Positions 1 through 6,642 of a stretch of 64,000 nt of DNA are shown piece by piece (position 1 is the first letter of the stretch; every line of letters begins with the position of its first letter). The position numbers were made by a program, and so were the translations under genes. Under the pieces are notes generated by a model. It was not told the DNA's origin, searched no databases, and saw nothing but the letters and a program-made list of their open reading frames with translations. The stretch is taken from contig OZ244999.1 in NCBI GenBank assembly GCA_965223265.1, forward strand, positions 6,144,001 through 6,208,000, in the 5' to 3' direction. The DNA comes from Planctomycetota bacterium (GTDB lineage Bacteria > Planctomycetota > UBA8108 > SXIK01).

Positions 1-1
1 A

Positions 2-322
2 GGGTTTCTGGTAAACCACTGCTCATCGAGCATCGTCCCCTCATTCCGACAATTCGACTCCCCACCATCGCCGCTTGTGTATAATATGCGGGCTGTTTCG
101 ACGCTGGCAGTTTCCAGGTTGGCACCTCACAGCATCGGATCTCAGGTGAACGGTTTCGGTACCGCGGGGTACAGGGAGATCGGAGAGTGGACTGACCGCA
201 CCGCGCCGGGTCGCGCCTGGGTTCTGGCCCGGCTTGCGACGAACCCAGTAGAGAAACATGATAGGCTGGATCTGCCGATCCATGACTACGAGGACTCGAT
301 ACCAGTTCAAGTTGGGTCTTGA
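2..322 (+). CDS. 3' end of an unidentified gene entering from the left edge
   Basis: Frame 2 is open from base 2 to TGA at 320-322 and stops 10 nt before the next ATG (operon-like); no family recognised. Confidence 0.5.
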   Translation, partial: GFLVNHCSSSIVPSFRQFDSPPSPLVYNMRAVSTLAVSRLAPHSIGSQVNGFGTAGYREIGEWTDRTAPGRAWVLARLATNPVEKHDRLDLPIHDYEDSIPVQVGS

Positions 323-332
323 CGAGGTGGCT

Positions 333-3146
333 ATGCAGGCAGCAGTGTTCGACCTCGACGGTGTAATCGTAGACAGTGAACGCATTCACTCGCGAGCATT
401 CGAAACAGTGTTGCGCGGTTATATTACCGAGCTGCCCTCTGGGAAAAGAGGACTGATTCACGAGATTGGTATAAGCGAAAAGGAAAACTGGCGTCAATTG
501 GTGAGAGATTACCAGTTGGACGTGGACGTTGACGAGTTAGTCCAGGAACGGCGCAAAATTTACCCGGACCTGATGCGCGAAGCGGAATTGCTGCCTGGGG
601 TGCGGGAACTGCTGATGGAGATTATAGGCCAGGATGTCGCACTCGCGATTGCTTCGTCCACGTCTCTCGAAAACATAGAGACCGTGTTGAAGACGCACGA
701 GCTTCGCACGTTCTTTGACGCCATCGTATCAGCAGACCAAGTATCGAGCGGGAAGCCGGATCCAAAGATCTATCTCGAGGCCGCGCAAAGACTGAACGCT
801 TCTCCGCAGCTATGTGTCGCGTTCGAAGATTCCGCTACTGGAGTACGTGCGGCTGTCGAGGCAGGTATGTTTGTCGTAGCCGTCCCAGTTTACGTATCTG
901 AGAATGACGTCGAAGAGGCCGACGTTGTGCTCAAGTCGCTGAAAGGTGTCCGGTGGGGAGATCTGTGTGAAAAGGCTCGCTTCTCGGGAGTTCTGAACCG
1001 AAAGGAGACCCCCTTTCTCGTGGCTCCGTACGCTAAGAGAGTTGGGCAGGAGTTCGTCTTCGCAGTCCAGCGGAGGAAAAAGACACCACGAGTTTTCGTC
1101 GTCGGGGATACCCCTTGGGATCAGTTTTGGATTGGCCGCCCCGCGCAAACCTATCAGTCACACAGCAAGAGTGGTCTGGAGTATCCGCAATTGCGGATTT
1201 CCGAGAAGACCAAGCAGTACGGTCGGCCGGGTACCGTTTTCGCCGTAGCGAAAGTTCTTCGGGAGTTCGGTGCGGAGGTCGTCGTCCTTACATGGACAGG
1301 ACACGATGACCACGGAGAGAGTATTAGGCGTGAGTACATCGACCTCGGCGTCAAATTGGTCGATATTCGGCTCGACTGTCCGACCTGCGTGCACCATTTC
1401 ATTTTGAGAGCGGTCCCGGGTGAGACGAGGGACGGCGGAGGTCTCGAAGTGATCTTGCGGATGAACTATGAAGATGAGGCGGTCGGAGTTCGTTTTCAGG
1501 GCAATGGGTCCTCCGCCGACTGGAAGCCGCGTGTGTGCGCTGCCCTGCAGAGCAGTGACTACGTAGTGATCAACGACATTCATCGAGGAACACTGTCGTG
1601 GATCGCGGATAGTGGATCAGCCGATTCGTCCGAGGCGCTTCAACTGATTCGCGAGCAGTACGACCATCTGGGATACGATCGCCCTGTCACTATTTTGGAC
1701 GTGCGAAAGTCACTCACACCCTATGCGTCGTTGCCCATCGACGTTCTTGCCGCCTCGGGCTACGAAATCGCGGGTTTTTTGAATCCGAGATGGATTCAGC
1801 GGTCCGACATAGACGATGTCGCTGGATACGGACTCGATGAAGAGGAGTTTATCAAGCTGATCGAGCGTTTCCCACAGATCGGTATGGTATCTTTGACGCG
1901 CGGTTGGAAGGGGGTGCAGCTCGGAGTGAAAACTAACCGCGGTATGATTTGTGTGTCGGACATCGAGGCATTCACTTCAGAGTCCCAGAGCGTTACCCCG
2001 CACGCTGGCGACTTCTTCGACGCTGGTCTTGTTCTCGGCCATTGGACCTCACAGCGATTCCAAGACGCCGTACTTCTCGCTCAGACGCTGGCGAGTTGTC
2101 AGGTTGAGTTTGGAGGGGTCGAGATTGTCAATTTCGAGACGGCTCTTTCCCAACTCGAGAACAACGTGTTTCCGCGCAAAGACTCCCGAGTGATTAGCAA
2201 ATTCGAGATCGAGGAGTCACGGTCAAACCGAGTTCTCGCTGTGTTGGAGCATGTTCGAAGCGAGTCGGTGATCGACCTCGAGCGAAACCAACTAGGGAAC
2301 CTGTTTGCATGCTTTCATCTCGGTGAGATGTATAGACGACTGAAGACGCTTACCCAGTCTTATGGAGAAGGGGAGAAGACGTTGTTAGTGGTGTCTGGGG
2401 AAACCGGCGCGTGCAAGACTGACTTCGCGCAGGCTCTCGGAGTAGAGATCCTTGCGAGCCGAGAATTGACGCTGGAACAGGCGAAAATCGCTGTGGTTGA
2501 CAAGTGCACCAAGAAATGGTCCGACGTGTTCGGTGATCCCGATCCTCGCGAATCTCTCTCCCAGATGTTGAGCGAGACGGCCGAATACGGCGTGTTACTC
2601 ATCGATGAATTCCGAGAGAATCAAGAAGCTGGGCAGGCTCTTCTCGAACTGATCGATTCCCCAAAGTTTTTCGGCAAAGCAAAGTTGATCGTCGTCGGCT
2701 CAGCACTGGTGGGAATGTCCAAGGCGAGCGAGAACCCCTGGGCGGACCTCGTAAGCCGAGCGCACGATTTTGTTGAGATGCCGGCGTGGAAAGGCGACGC
2801 AATCGAAGACTTTCCGTATTGGTTTGCGAAAGCGTGCGAGTGGAGTCTTGCAGACGGCCAACCAGGACTGAAACCGGAGATTCAGTTAACGGTGGAACTG
2901 AGTGCATTGCACCATCTGATGATTCAATTCGAGGCAATCGAGAACGCGGTGAAGAAAAAGAACTATCGCGTGCTGGATACCCTGCTGTCGCCGGACGGAG
3001 TCCAGTGGCGAAACGGCTTGACTCTCAAAGCAGTACGACAATTCACAGAACGATTGGGGATTCCGAGTCCCTCGGCTTCGGTCGAACCGCCGTCCGGATT
3101 CTCCGTACGTGTACCCGTCCGACTTCCGCCGCCGAACTCAGCGTAG
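333..3146 (+). CDS. HAD phosphatase / PfkB(HldE)-like kinase / degenerate AAA+ fusion protein
   Basis: GAGGTGG RBS before ATG 333; HAD motifs DLDGV, ASS, KPDP, FEDS; PfkB-like VFVVGD...HAGDFFDAG; Walker-like GETGACKT and LLIDE. Confidence 0.75.
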   Translation: MQAAVFDLDGVIVDSERIHSRAFETVLRGYITELPSGKRGLIHEIGISEKENWRQLVRDYQLDVDVDELVQERRKIYPDLMREAELLPGVRELLMEIIGQDVALAIASSTSLENIETVLKTHELRTFFDAIVSADQVSSGKPDPKIYLEAAQRLNASPQLCVAFEDSATGVRAAVEAGMFVVAVPVYVSENDVEEADVVLKSLKGVRWGDLCEKARFSGVLNRKETPFLVAPYAKRVGQEFVFAVQRRKKTPRVFVVGDTPWDQFWIGRPAQTYQSHSKSGLEYPQLRISEKTKQYGRPGTVFAVAKVLREFGAEVVVLTWTGHDDHGESIRREYIDLGVKLVDIRLDCPTCVHHFILRAVPGETRDGGGLEVILRMNYEDEAVGVRFQGNGSSADWKPRVCAALQSSDYVVINDIHRGTLSWIADSGSADSSEALQLIREQYDHLGYDRPVTILDVRKSLTPYASLPIDVLAASGYEIAGFLNPRWIQRSDIDDVAGYGLDEEEFIKLIERFPQIGMVSLTRGWKGVQLGVKTNRGMICVSDIEAFTSESQSVTPHAGDFFDAGLVLGHWTSQRFQDAVLLAQTLASCQVEFGGVEIVNFETALSQLENNVFPRKDSRVISKFEIEESRSNRVLAVLEHVRSESVIDLERNQLGNLFACFHLGEMYRRLKTLTQSYGEGEKTLLVVSGETGACKTDFAQALGVEILASRELTLEQAKIAVVDKCTKKWSDVFGDPDPRESLSQMLSETAEYGVLLIDEFRENQEAGQALLELIDSPKFFGKAKLIVVGSALVGMSKASENPWADLVSRAHDFVEMPAWKGDAIEDFPYWFAKACEWSLADGQPGLKPEIQLTVELSALHHLMIQFEAIENAVKKKNYRVLDTLLSPDGVQWRNGLTLKAVRQFTERLGIPSPSASVEPPSGFSVRVPVRLPPPNSA

Positions 3147-3432
3147 AAGAATGTCGGTGAGTTGATCACGGTTCTACCGCGCAGCATCTGACTTTTCGTA
3201 AGCCTCCGACCGTCCACGTGGCCTGATGTTGTGTTGCCAGCGCACACGACGATCGTATACCGGTATACGAAACGATACAAAATCACCGTGAATCGAGCAC
3301 GATTGTTGCAACCAGGGGTGCATCGAGGTACATTGCTACGCAACGAGTTGCGACTTCCAAGCAAGCCCTCTGAGAGTCTTACAAGGTGGAAGTTCCCAGT
3401 TCGAGTCTGGGCATGTCCACCACCGATAAACG

Positions 3433-3466
3433 GCCCCGCAACAGGTTGTTGCGGGGCTCTTCCTTT
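3433..3466 (+). terminator. Probable intrinsic terminator between convergent genes
   Basis: GCCCCGCAACA-ggt-TGTTGCGGGGC stem followed by TCTTCCTTT. Confidence 0.55.
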
Positions 3467-3563: not shown

Positions 3564-3749
3564 CTATTCCCTCGTCGCCGCCGCCAGGATCAACCGCCGC
3601 ATCCACTCCGCCACGGTGAGTCCCTCGCGCTCGGCGACGCGCGTGATCAATCGGTGCTCCGCATCGGTGACGCGAAGGTTGACGATCTTGCCTTTGTACT
3701 TTGATCTCGCGATCTTGGGTCGTCCTCTTTTCTTCTTTTTCTTTGTCAT
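3564..3749 (-). CDS. Small ribbon-helix-helix (MobC/CopG-like) DNA-binding protein
   Basis: 61 aa, KRGRPK hook then IVNLRVTDAEHRLITRVAEREGLTVAEWMRR (beta-alpha-alpha pattern). Confidence 0.7.
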   Translation of the reverse strand: MTKKKKKRGRPKIARSKYKGKIVNLRVTDAEHRLITRVAEREGLTVAEWMRRLILAAATRE

Positions 3750-3830: not shown

Positions 3831-4122
3831 CAGTTGATCGTGCGCTGAAGAGATGCTCGCGGTGATTGATCCGTGCTTTCTCTTCTTCGCACACTGACGT
3901 GTGAGCGTCGGCGGCACAGTGGGATGCTTCTTCGGAAGAGCGCAGATGTGGTTCGTTTGCCCTTCTCGACGAAGCCAGCATCACGCAGTGCTGCGCGTGC
4001 TCAACTGCGACCACAACGGCGTTCTCCTTGGACGGTCCGGGAGAACAAGAAAGCGGAGCTCCGCCAAACGTCTTGGCGGACAAGCAGAGCTCCAATCACC
4101 ACCACCTTTTCAGGAGGCAGCT

Positions 4123-5127
4123 ATGCCAAACTCTACCGTCGCTTCTACCCGTCCCGCAACTTTTGCATCGGAACGATTCGATGTGGGAGGCGCTTCAGGC
4201 GCTTCACCCCTACCGGATGCAGAAGCGACAGCTCGCACGGCGGCGACCGTCGGCGGCAATGAAGATCGCCTCGGTGCCAACGCCACCGGCGCCTACAGAC
4301 CGGCTTCCATCACCGACGCCGACCTTGCCGCTTTCGAAGCCGCCCTTCCCAACGTCGTTCGGCTCCGCCGCCTTGCCCTCAGCGCGACGGCGCGAAGCGA
4401 CTGGACAAGCGTTGGGGGCCAGCCCTATCTTGGCACAGCCGGCTGCATGAAGATTGCCGCGCTTTTCGGCGTCAGCCTCACCGGCACACGCGTTCAGGCT
4501 GCACGCGACGACGCTGGCGTAAGCGACGTCATCCGCTACGTCGCCCGCACAACCGCCCGCTTCCTTGGCCGCCGAGTTGAAGTTGAAGGCGTGGCCAGCT
4601 CGAGCGAGAGCTTCTTCTCACGCCGCCGCGGCAAGAGATTGCCGCTCTCGGAGATCGATCTGAGCGCGGTGCGCAAGAAGGCCGTCACGAACGCCCAAAT
4701 CCGCGCCGTCAAATGCATCCTCGGGCTTGGCGGCATCACCTGGGACGAAGTGCGCGCCGCCGGCGTCACGAAGGACGGGGTTGCCGCCGTCGACTTCGGT
4801 CGCCGCGGCGAGCGTGAATCCCGCGCGGCAGCACACCAACCGGCCGGCGCTGTCACGAAACGACAGCCACGTCGGCTCGACCCAGCCCGACGGCGCCTCT
4901 ATAACATCCTCCTTGAGCTCGGCACCCACCAGCAGGTGCGCTTCGATGAATCCTTACGCCACTACTCACGCCGCCGCGGCGCCCATGGCGAGAGCCAGTG
5001 CGCCGAGCGGATCAGCGATCTGGACGCGGCCTGGCTGCAGGAGACCCTCGAGCGCGCCGAGCACGACTGGCGCGAGATCCCCGTGGGGCAGCTTGCCAGC
5101 CGCATCAAACTGGAGCAAGGCGACTGA
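4123..5127 (+). CDS. Phage-type protein, putative single-strand annealing (Rad52/Sak-like) recombinase
   Basis: CAGGAGG RBS before ATG 4123; DW..GGQPYL..AG..KIA.LFGVS and KKAVTNA..RAV..ILGL motifs resemble phage recombination proteins. Confidence 0.5.
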   Translation: MPNSTVASTRPATFASERFDVGGASGASPLPDAEATARTAATVGGNEDRLGANATGAYRPASITDADLAAFEAALPNVVRLRRLALSATARSDWTSVGGQPYLGTAGCMKIAALFGVSLTGTRVQAARDDAGVSDVIRYVARTTARFLGRRVEVEGVASSSESFFSRRRGKRLPLSEIDLSAVRKKAVTNAQIRAVKCILGLGGITWDEVRAAGVTKDGVAAVDFGRRGERESRAAAHQPAGAVTKRQPRRLDPARRRLYNILLELGTHQQVRFDESLRHYSRRRGAHGESQCAERISDLDAAWLQETLERAEHDWREIPVGQLASRIKLEQGD

Positions 5128-5588: not shown

Positions 5589-6032
5589 ATGACAATCTCC
5601 GTGACGCTCACGGCGCTGCTCTTCATCGCCATCTCCGCTTCATGCATCTCGCTCTTTCGACCCGCGGCCCGGAGCCCCCACCAGCTCCATCGACCCGACG
5701 GCACCACCGTCGTCTGCTATGAACCGCCGGCCGAGGTCGTGCCTAGCGCCGTGAGAGCGCGAATCGACGCCAAGATTCCCGACGTCATCGAGGTCCTCGA
5801 AGCGCAGCTTGAGATCGAGGAGACGTTCGTTCGCATCCGCTCGGAGGTTCACAATCTGCAGGCTGTCGAAGCGCTCGAGTTTCGTCTCTGCGCCGCCTGG
5901 GCACAGGGGGTTCTCAGTGAGGAGCTCTACCGCGAGTTCCTGTTTGAGGTGTTGCCGCTTCTGCGAGAAGCGTGTCGCGACGAAGACGCGACGGCAACGA
6001 CGGTGCTGTTCGTGGAGGGTTCAGAACGGTGA
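5589..6032 (+). CDS. Hypothetical protein with N-terminal hydrophobic anchor
   Basis: MTISVTLTALLFIAISASC hydrophobic segment; stop overlaps the next GTG start (GTGA). Confidence 0.55.
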   Translation: MTISVTLTALLFIAISASCISLFRPAARSPHQLHRPDGTTVVCYEPPAEVVPSAVRARIDAKIPDVIEVLEAQLEIEETFVRIRSEVHNLQAVEALEFRLCAAWAQGVLSEELYREFLFEVLPLLREACRDEDATATTVLFVEGSER

Positions 6033-6301
6033 CTACCCAGCACAACGACGCGCAAATCGAACTTCCCGACGCTTTCCGGCTCTTCTCCGTGCAGCAAGTC
6101 GCTCACATTCTGCAGGTGCGCGAATCCGTCGTTCGCAAACTCATCTTCGAGGGCAAGCTCAGCGCCACCCGCGTTGGCGTGCTGATCCGTGTGTCGCAAG
6201 CTGCCCTCGAACGATTTCTCGTAGAAAACCCCTGCACTGCGCCGGACGCGCGCCGAGATCCCTGGCGGCATCGACGGGCACTCACCAAGCGCACGAAATA
6301 G
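6029..6301 (+). CDS. Excisionase-like helix-turn-helix (HTH_17) protein
   Basis: GGAGGG RBS; LFSVQQVAHILQVRESVVRKLIFEGKLSATRVG..IRV motif. Confidence 0.75.
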   Translation: MTTQHNDAQIELPDAFRLFSVQQVAHILQVRESVVRKLIFEGKLSATRVGVLIRVSQAALERFLVENPCTAPDARRDPWRHRRALTKRTK

Positions 6302-6564: not shown

Positions 6565-6642
6565 TGGTCGGGGTGACTGGATTCGAACCAACGACCTCCT
6601 GCTCCCAAAGCAGGCGCTCTAGCCAAGCTGAGCTACACCCCG
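6565..6642 (-). tRNA. tRNA-Pro (anticodon UGG)
   Basis: Reverse complement CGGGGTGTAGCTCAGC...CCTGCTTTGGGAGCAGG...GGTTCGAATCC...CCCCGACCA; cloverleaf with encoded CCA. Confidence 0.97.

Follow-up and report, generated by a model that had tools for sequence, protein, structure and literature searches.

The window analysed here is a stretch of 64,000 nucleotides from a Planctomycetota bacterium (GenBank assembly GCA_965223265.1, contig OZ244999.1, positions 6,144,001 to 6,208,000 of the forward strand), and its first base is G000:C1:6144001 in a single-contig genome of 9.18 Mb. Near its start lies a gene whose predicted 937-residue product, P0001, joins a HAD phosphatase, a ribokinase-fold kinase and an AAA+-like module. 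To judge by its sequence, the gene is real, horizontally acquired and encodes a single-chain enzyme whose core belongs to a new, very rare clade of ribokinase-fold kinases. The coding sequence and its domains, with the evidence for each in brackets, are as follows.

333..3146, + strand: complete coding sequence for P0001, 937 amino acids, HAD phosphatase followed by ribokinase-fold kinase and AAA+-like NTPase (list of open reading frames and translation)
333..950, + strand: HAD-IA (beta-phosphoglucomutase/YqaB-like) phosphatase domain, residues 1 to ~206 (Pfam, NCBIfam, motifs I-IV)
1065..2162, + strand: divergent kinase domain of ribokinase/PfkB fold, residues ~245-610, which forms the conserved core of a seven-member family (Pfam, NCBIfam, AlphaFold/Foldseek, alignment)
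2205..3143, + strand: P-loop/AAA+-like module, residues 625-937, with Walker A at nt 2397-2420 and Walker B at nt 2595-2609 (motifs, hhalign)

Three domains in one reading frame

An earlier, sequence-only reading of this locus had placed phosphatase, kinase and AAA+ module in one polypeptide, and the translation bears this out: the frame runs uninterrupted from ATG 333 to the stop codon at 3144-3146 (937 codons). Starting at an in-frame ATG at 258 instead would lengthen the product by 25 residues; ATG 333 is preferred because a GAGG-type ribosome site lies 5-11 nt ahead of it, because HAD motif I then falls seven residues from the N-terminus, and because the exact 937-residue product is already on record from NCBI/ENA (protein collection look-up). 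An obvious misjoin is excluded, and there was no sign of the misassembled junction that would have undone the sequence-only reading. Logan contigs from two sequencing runs (X1 and X2) cover window positions 1-3400 in one piece with 0 differences, and each domain junction is also crossed by contig pieces from a second sample (X4; 1-1122 and 1676-2538). The four runs were all made in a single study and may themselves be the reads behind the assembly, so their agreement is not independent confirmation. The G+C content of the gene is 54.7%, against 60.85% for the genome, which places it in the lowest 0.8% of the genome's 3-kb windows, and its codon-position G+C (~0.6/0.4/0.6) is gene-like in each of the three domains.

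The N-terminal domain falls within subfamily IA of the HAD superfamily, with Pfam HAD_2 at 7.8e-31 (108 bits against a cut-off of 23.8) and Hydrolase at 1.2e-27. HAD proteins are recognised by a DxDG[TV] motif (I), a Ser or Thr (II), a Lys (III) and an ED pair (IV), and all four motifs, which had been described as intact, could be located: FDLDGV at residues 6-11, ASSTS at 107-111, SGKPDP at 139-144 and FEDSATG at 164-170. The cut-offs of the beta-phosphoglucomutase/YqaB subfamily were missed (PGMB-YQAB-SF, 139.5 against 153.35 bits; the other model, 115.6 against 189.4; NCBIfam TIGR02009 and TIGR01990), and on these scores we place the domain close to that subfamily without calling it a member. 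By sequence, the nearest solved structures are a sugar phosphatase (3kbb, 3.5e-25) and a pseudouridine-5'-phosphatase (9m7l, 1.4e-22). A close paralog of the domain was not found in the genome, where the best match has 31-35% identity.

The central domain had been described as a PfkB/HldE-like kinase with an AGD motif, an assignment that several lines of evidence support. Pfam PfkB (PF00294) aligns over residues 304-596 with 25.5 bits, 0.3 bit below its gathering cut-off of 25.8; among the relatives introduced below, P0038 passes (31.3 bits) and P0036 (12.8) and P0037 (22.2) do not. The NCBIfam model rfaE_dom_I (TIGR02198, heptose-7-phosphate kinase) is the sole kinase equivalog to match P0001 (2e-7), P0038 (2e-8, over its full length) and P0036 (8e-4). 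Their scores of 30.5, 33.8 and 18.6 bits stand against a cut-off of 345, so none of them belongs to HldE domain I as that model defines it; a genuine HldE from the same phylum scores 321-364 bits. In a 717-residue AlphaFold model built on a 5-sequence alignment, the kinase part has a predicted local distance difference test score (pLDDT) mostly of 60-90, and Foldseek returned 416 PDB matches at E<=0.001 for it, headed by PsuK (7vtd, 2.8e-14), HldA (4e8y, 6.7e-14) and ribokinases, with template-modelling (TM) scores on the target of 0.69-0.74. By this model the P0001 kinase has the ribokinase fold that defines the superfamily, and PsuK and other PfkB nucleoside and sugar kinases are its best structural matches (TM on target 0.71-0.74). 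A sequence profile of the kinase family, searched against the PDB, matched no solved structure at E<=0.01.

Alignment of the seven family members gave 52 invariant columns, including GDTP.D, RPG, ND..GT, S..E and TPH.GD.FD.G, and P0001 keeps every one of them. The motif TPHAGDFFDAG lies at residues 555-565, and its G559-D560, presumably the Gly-Asp of the C-terminal PfkB signature G-[AG]-G-D with its catalytic Asp, is invariant in 7/7 members. We take the family motifs to correspond to the canonical PfkB motifs from the range of the Pfam alignment rather than from a residue-level structural superposition. On that assumption, the invariant S475..E478 presumably stands where PfkB kinases have the metal/phosphate motif N..E, and RPG presumably replaces their GG motif. 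The family kinase is also ~60-100 residues longer than a typical PfkB kinase, in addition to its borderline Pfam score. Taken on its sequence, the P0001 kinase looks catalytically competent and far from any characterised subfamily.

The C-terminal module carries GETGACKT (Walker A, 689-696), LLIDE (Walker B, 755-759), MPAW (816-819), EDFP (825-828) and NYRVL (877-881), strings that had suggested a degenerate NtrC-like AAA+ domain lacking GAFTGA and a helix-turn-helix (HTH) and having an altered Walker A. The description of what is missing or altered was correct: in Walker A a Cys replaces the conserved Gly before the Lys, where the relative P0035 keeps the canonical GAQGAGKT; GAFTGA is absent from P0001 by motif check; and no HTH family matched the C-terminal part in a Pfam scan. 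The NtrC-like part of the assignment fared less well. Residues 625-937 gave only AAA_16 (0.016) and AAA_14 (0.017) in Pfam, both below their cut-offs, and hhalign comparisons were made against sets of alignments built from this genome's own proteins, with the following probabilities.

Classic AAA (PF00004): 95.1%, 70 aligned columns
AAA_16: 93.6%, 46 columns
AAA_22: 93.1%, 43 columns
Sigma54 activators: 44.8%, 185 columns, collinear
MoxR: 16%, 26 columns

As a control, 20 column-shuffled queries gave at most 1% against the sigma54-activator set. What the module has in common with NtrC/PspF-type activators is a Walker A of the form GE[ST]G..K and an alignment that runs collinearly over 185 columns from Walker A through Walker B to the E-D-[IF]-P lid motif, and the strings GE.G..K and E-D-F-P are real. 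It differs in scoring lower against the activators than against generic AAA, and in having none of the three features by which a sigma54 activator (bacterial enhancer-binding protein) is recognised, namely PF00158, the GAFTGA loop and a C-terminal HTH; PF00158 had no match on residues 625-937 at E<=10, and of its 41 matches in a six-frame scan of the genome none fell at the P0001 locus. The module is common only to P0001 and P0035 (27% identity), and no paralog was found in the genome even at E<=1. Structure models of it were unusable, with pLDDT <50 when taken from the 717-residue model and averaging 38.5 when the domain was modelled by itself, and the protein atlas returned generic AAA clusters at 0.90-0.93, which serve as leads only. 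By its motifs and profile comparisons we regard the module as AAA+-like in general and not demonstrably sigma54-activator-like.

Elsewhere, the genome has ~33 strong Sigma54_activat matches, several of them in giant open frames of 1600-2079 residues that also carry AAA_16 a few kb upstream in the same frame (for example G000:C1:4754650-4758822, 7560463-7564422 and 9021962-9025483), and these giant fusions appear from their sequences to be an unusual expansion in this genome. Ten further places share an AAA_22/AAA_16 score of 66.2 bits inside 360-residue open frames (for example G000:C1:603045-603416); they resemble copies of one repeated element, perhaps the ATPase gene of a multicopy insertion sequence.

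A rare kinase family with TIR-fused members

A word-seeded search with whole P0001 returned 34 proteins, and besides the query itself the matches cover the HAD part only (15-24% of the query). When residues 221-937 were scanned with HMMER against 1,835,955,588 representatives, 5 proteins were found at E<=0.001, namely the query and P0035 (700 aa), P0036 (548 aa), P0037 (547 aa) and P0038 (407 aa). Two stand-alone kinases, P0043 and P0044, came from a profile search, whose sole outgroup was one protein confirmed as an HldE (P0045); the kinase family thus numbers seven proteins in all (P0001, P0035-P0038, P0043 and P0044).

The six relatives of P0001 comprise three stand-alone kinases, two TIR_2-kinase fusions and one kinase-ATPase (P0035). 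Across the family the kinase core is constant and the ends vary, with TIR, HAD or nothing at the N-terminus and the ATPase or nothing at the C-terminus. The TIR_2 domains of P0036 and P0037 are clear in Pfam (3.9e-27 and 5.5e-23), and they match PADLOC TIR effector models (1.4e-13 and 1.3e-11) as well as NCBIfam retron-TIR/Thoeris models. In joining an N-terminal TIR_2 to a second domain, these two proteins resemble the effectors of TIR-SAVED, TIR-STING and TIR-APAZ systems, whose PADLOC models they match; they differ in that the partner is a ribokinase-fold kinase, and P0001 differs further in having HAD in place of TIR. None of the four HMMER relatives has a HAD domain, which leaves the HAD fusion unique to P0001, and no twin of the HAD-kinase-ATPase order turned up among the 1.84 billion representatives, in keeping with the original remark that the architecture was not one its reader recognised.

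The family is sparse in every collection searched. Each of its clusters holds one protein from one contig. It was not found in 40 related genomes, two of which gave weak PfkB-level matches (1e-4 and 3.8e-4), nor in 400 genomes sampled across the phylum, 29 of which gave weak matches (E 5.8e-13 to 9.8e-9) to the N-terminal half only; the one of these that was tested is an HldE. Pattern scans of genome, metagenome and viral contig collections, those of metagenomes also with P0038 as lead, and tblastn searches of plasmids returned no confirmed relative. In records of the Joint Genome Institute (JGI), P0038 is annotated as an ADP-heptose synthase and P0036 as a sugar/nucleoside kinase. The sequence-only reading had conceded that it would fall if the homologs were ordinary housekeeping sugar-metabolism genes with no defence-island association; for the kinase family itself, as seen in its proteins and not in their genomic neighbourhoods, this was not what we found.

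Each of the folds is known in itself. No description appears to exist of the kinase clade, of its TIR fusions or of the HAD-kinase-ATPase architecture. Among the portions of the literature available on pairings of TIR with ribokinase or PfkB, the only match was an unrelated jumbo-phage paper and none described the pairing, and 'ribokinase' with 'Thoeris' gave no match. The main text of a 2025 systematic survey of TIR systems contains 0 occurrences of 'kinase', 'PfkB' or 'phosphatase', and its supplements might list such fusions. The KKP kinase-kinase-phosphatase phage module, so far as its accessible text goes, is unrelated and surfaced only through the kinase names PfkA and PfkB.

The tRNA-Pro island around the gene

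P0001 had been proposed to be cargo of an element integrated at a tRNA-Pro gene, and the neighbourhood, listed here in genome (G000:C1) or window coordinates, agrees with that proposal.

G000:C1:6141246-6142602 (L004:15246-16602), - strand: split glycosidase-like/phosphoribosyltransferase (PRTase) gene, two open reading frames in different frames, ~1.7-3 kb upstream of the P0001 gene
G000:C1:6142868-6143728 (L004:16868-17728), + strand: tyrosine recombinase pseudogene in three frames, ~600 nt upstream of the P0001 gene (Pfam)
2..322, + strand: open reading frame P0042 (118 aa), whose GTG start lies outside the window and whose end is 10 nt ahead of the P0001 start codon; probably not a gene
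3432..3458, + strand: terminator-like hairpin, a candidate only, with a 12-bp stem containing 8 G-C pairs, ~290 nt past the P0001 stop (consensus scan; 6 sites of this kind in all, with 3.9 expected from shuffles)
3564..3749, - strand: ribbon-helix-helix protein, 61 aa, resembling a NikA-like mobilisation accessory or an antitoxin (Pfam NikA-like 1e-08, RHH_7 2.9e-4)
5972..6301, + strand: HTH_17 (excisionase-type) DNA-binding protein adjoining the tRNA (Pfam HTH_17 2.4e-08)
6565..6642, - strand: tRNA-Pro(TGG), whose 3' 48 nt (6565-6612) are the proximal direct-repeat copy (ARAGORN; Rfam tRNA, 65.3 bits)

An exact second copy of the 48-nt repeat lies at G000:C1:6067815-6067862, and the two copies bound an 82.7-kb island with a G+C content of 56.9% against the genome's 60.85%. 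Between them are transposases of four families, a large serine recombinase, glycosyltransferases, a sulfotransferase, a pyruvyl transferase, a DUF3854/DUF927 primase-helicase and a DUF5677 protein. The exact repeat, the mobility genes inside it and the atypical composition together mark an integrated element at a tRNA gene. No intact tyrosine integrase was found between the 48-nt repeats, and the one inside is frameshifted. Internal att copies were not found in the island at up to 3 mismatches per 20-mer, and a separate mini-element made up of the 7.7 kb nearest the tRNA is unproven. Outside the island, 240 nt from the distal 48-bp repeat, lies an intact Phage_integrase gene (G000:C1:6066522-6067574, L013:522-1571, - strand); this suggests that a second island adjoins in tandem, at the same tRNA-Pro.

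The genes next to P0001 are in poor condition. The frame that had been taken for a gene 10 nt upstream, P0042, has a codon-position G+C of 0.62/0.51/0.61, which is not gene-like; it has no Pfam or PADLOC match, two start variants were absent from the protein collection, its language-model recognition score is low (1275), and the protein atlas gave no usable match. It is probably not a gene, and by sequence the real upstream neighbour is the frameshifted tyrosine recombinase, whose pieces correspond to a SAM-like N-domain (Phage_int_SAM_1, 1.7e-7) followed by the catalytic domain in an N- and a C-part (Phage_integrase, 0.0024 and 3e-14). A 198-residue upstream frame, P0041, was likewise rejected as a gene, being an out-of-frame reading of this broken integrase. 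Beyond it, the split gene consists of a 217-residue protein and a PRTase (Pfam 9e-13); since the two parts are fused in one protein in each of the only three homologs (P0046-P0048, 343-368 aa), we read the pair as the frameshift-split copy of another very rare, apparently conflict-like gene. The glycosidase-like neighbour P0039 was not called a TIR protein: it matches the PADLOC 'Effector TIR' model (7.3e-10) but no Pfam TIR, and we take its motifs (FVIMPSG...NPNVFFELG) to resemble those of a nucleoside deoxyribosyltransferase-type glycosidase.

Two further genes of conflict type were seen along the island. One encodes a SIR2_2-domain protein of 1178 aa (G000:C1:6111674-6115213, L015:7674-11210, - strand) that matches the PADLOC SIR2/pAgo-associated and ThsA models (SIR2 models, 1.8e-13) and is a candidate NAD-depleting defence gene. 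The other (G000:C1:6088964-6093826, L014:3964-8823, + strand) encodes an Rhs-repeat protein of 1620 aa whose C-terminal domain is an Ntox44 toxin, and transposase fragments come after it. Two long frames, one of 408 aa at window positions 3901-5127 (+ strand, G+C ~65-68%) and one of 740 aa inside the island (L004:10919-13141, + strand), have no Pfam or PADLOC match.

Possible roles of P0001

The domains and their motifs, the rarity of the family, its TIR fusions and the island setting are observed; the substrate, the direction of flux, the oligomerisation and the conflict role of P0001 are inferred from them. The reading we favour, tentatively and at somewhat short of even confidence, is that P0001 is a conflict-system enzyme acting on a phosphorylated sugar or nucleotide-derived small molecule. 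The kinase would use ATP to phosphorylate a hydroxyl of a phosphosugar or of a nucleotide-derived sugar; because the nearest known relatives, HldA and HldE domain I, act at that place on a distally phosphorylated sugar, the anomeric hydroxyl is the likely target, with ribose-5-phosphate-like or ADP-ribose-like compounds as candidates. The HAD phosphatase would remove a phosphate from the same small molecule or from the kinase product, and the AAA+-like module, given its non-canonical Walker A, would probably serve assembly or regulation rather than act as a motor. By making, altering or destroying a phosphorylated sugar or nucleotide metabolite, the protein could take part in defence, abortive infection or counter-defence. 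We favour such a role because TIR fills the N-terminal slot of the HAD domain in relatives and because the gene lies in a GC-poor tRNA island rich in conflict genes. Conflict proteins typically combine a constant core with end domains that vary. TIR domains act on NAD+, and their presence in the HAD slot is the reason for preferring a metabolite of ribose or ADP-ribose type.

The sequence-only reading had also raised a possible defence or conflict system, and independent evidence now supports it: TIR_2 fusions make up 2/6 of the relatives, the family is very rare and patchy, and the island holds conflict-type genes. Several points weigh against the conflict reading. PADLOC-DB 2.0 returned 0 families for P0001 at E<=1, and no PADLOC model matched the kinase or ATPase parts of P0035 or P0038 save for a weak mad8 match (0.0047) in the Walker A region of P0035. 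The 'defence-island association' comes down to one locus and the domain fusions, and the nearest sequence families, HldE domain I and beta-phosphoglucomutase/YqaB-type HAD, are housekeeping sugar enzymes. The pairing of a kinase step with a following HAD step mimics an ordinary biosynthetic pathway. Because a broken integrase separates them, P0001 and the glycosidase-like/PRTase gene need not cooperate, and with its adjacent genes decaying the island may be a graveyard in which the Walker A change is possibly a first sign of decay.

The chief rival, which we rate as unlikely and still a serious contender, is accessory carbohydrate metabolism, in which the kinase would phosphorylate an anomeric position, the HAD domain would remove a distal phosphate in the manner of HldA and GmhB, and the resulting sugar-1-phosphate would feed a nucleotide-sugar or glycan pathway of the island. 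This explains the kinase-HAD pairing well. It also draws on rfaE_dom_I as the one kinase equivalog for P0001, P0038 and P0036, on HldA among the top fold matches, on HldE (P0045) as the only match of the kinase profile outside the family, on a HAD domain closest to sugar-phosphate phosphatases and beta-phosphoglucomutase, on the JGI names of P0038 and P0036, and on the several glycosyltransferases, the sulfotransferase and the pyruvyl transferase of the island. The ribokinase fold, the rfaE_dom_I signal and the pairing with a HAD domain are indeed what P0001 has in common with HldA/HldE domain I (D-glycero-beta-D-manno-heptose-7-phosphate kinase) and GmhB. The differences are considerable: the rfaE_dom_I score is far below the family cut-off (30.5 against 345 bits), no adenylyltransferase or other nucleotidyltransferase is fused or adjacent, and all the activities sit in one chain with an AAA+-like tail, encoded on a mobile island; the HAD domain is of the capped IA/beta-phosphoglucomutase type, and GmhB is a HAD protein of a different type. 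The glycosyltransferase cluster lies ~60 kb off, beyond several insertion sequence elements; TIR-carrying relatives and an AAA+-like tail are at odds with a biosynthetic kinase; and such extreme rarity is unlike a useful metabolic module.

That the kinase and phosphatase oppose each other, as the sequence-only reading had supposed, proved to be an assumption that the nearest kinase family does not bear out: in the ADP-heptose pathway HldA or HldE domain I is followed, not opposed, by the HAD phosphatase GmhB. A reading built on that opposition, in which both domains act at a single position of one small molecule and ATPase-triggered assembly sets off a futile, ATP-draining cycle (abortive infection), or in which the pair inactivates an immune signal for the benefit of the mobile element (counter-defence), is in our view decidedly unlikely. 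Both catalytic centres look intact in one chain, the TIR-fused relatives tie the kinase to NAD/ADP-ribose chemistry, and the gene is carried on a mobile island; against this, P0001 matches no defence or anti-defence model and has a non-canonical Walker A, the closest known kinase/HAD pairing is sequential, and a substrate position shared by the two domains is an assumption. A more specific proposal, something of a long shot, is that the kinase core is a new class phosphorylating ADP-ribose or another NAD-derived sugar nucleotide at its anomeric position, much as HldA acts on a distally phosphorylated sugar. In the TIR-fused relatives TIR would then cleave NAD+ and the kinase would make a phosphorylated immune signal, or a dead end that blocks NAD+ recycling, and P0001 would be a single-chain variant that erases such a signal or runs a regulated, ATP-burning futile cycle. 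Least probable of all, we think, is that the gene is a relic, decaying or without function, which arose by chance fusion, sits in a degrading island and is no longer under selection. The frameshifts in the adjacent integrase and glycosidase-like/PRTase gene, the Gly to Cys change in Walker A and the singleton architecture would fit such a relic; it is hard to square with 2,814 nt open without a stop, with gene-like codon-position G+C in three domains, with the retention of all 52 invariant kinase columns and the four HAD motifs, or with a kinase-ATPase junction that recurs in P0035, so that this part at least is not a chance fusion.

If the metabolic reading were true, P0001 would be a curiosity in which two steps of phosphosugar metabolism are fused on a mobile island. 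If instead P0001 is a conflict-system enzyme, the enzymes that partner TIR domains in bacterial immunity would come to include a sugar-kinase fold, pointing to phosphorylated NAD-derived or sugar-nucleotide metabolites as signals or targets, a chemistry that we did not find described in those parts of the literature that were searched. With seven proteins and clear catalytic residues, the kinase family is small enough for either possibility to be directly testable.

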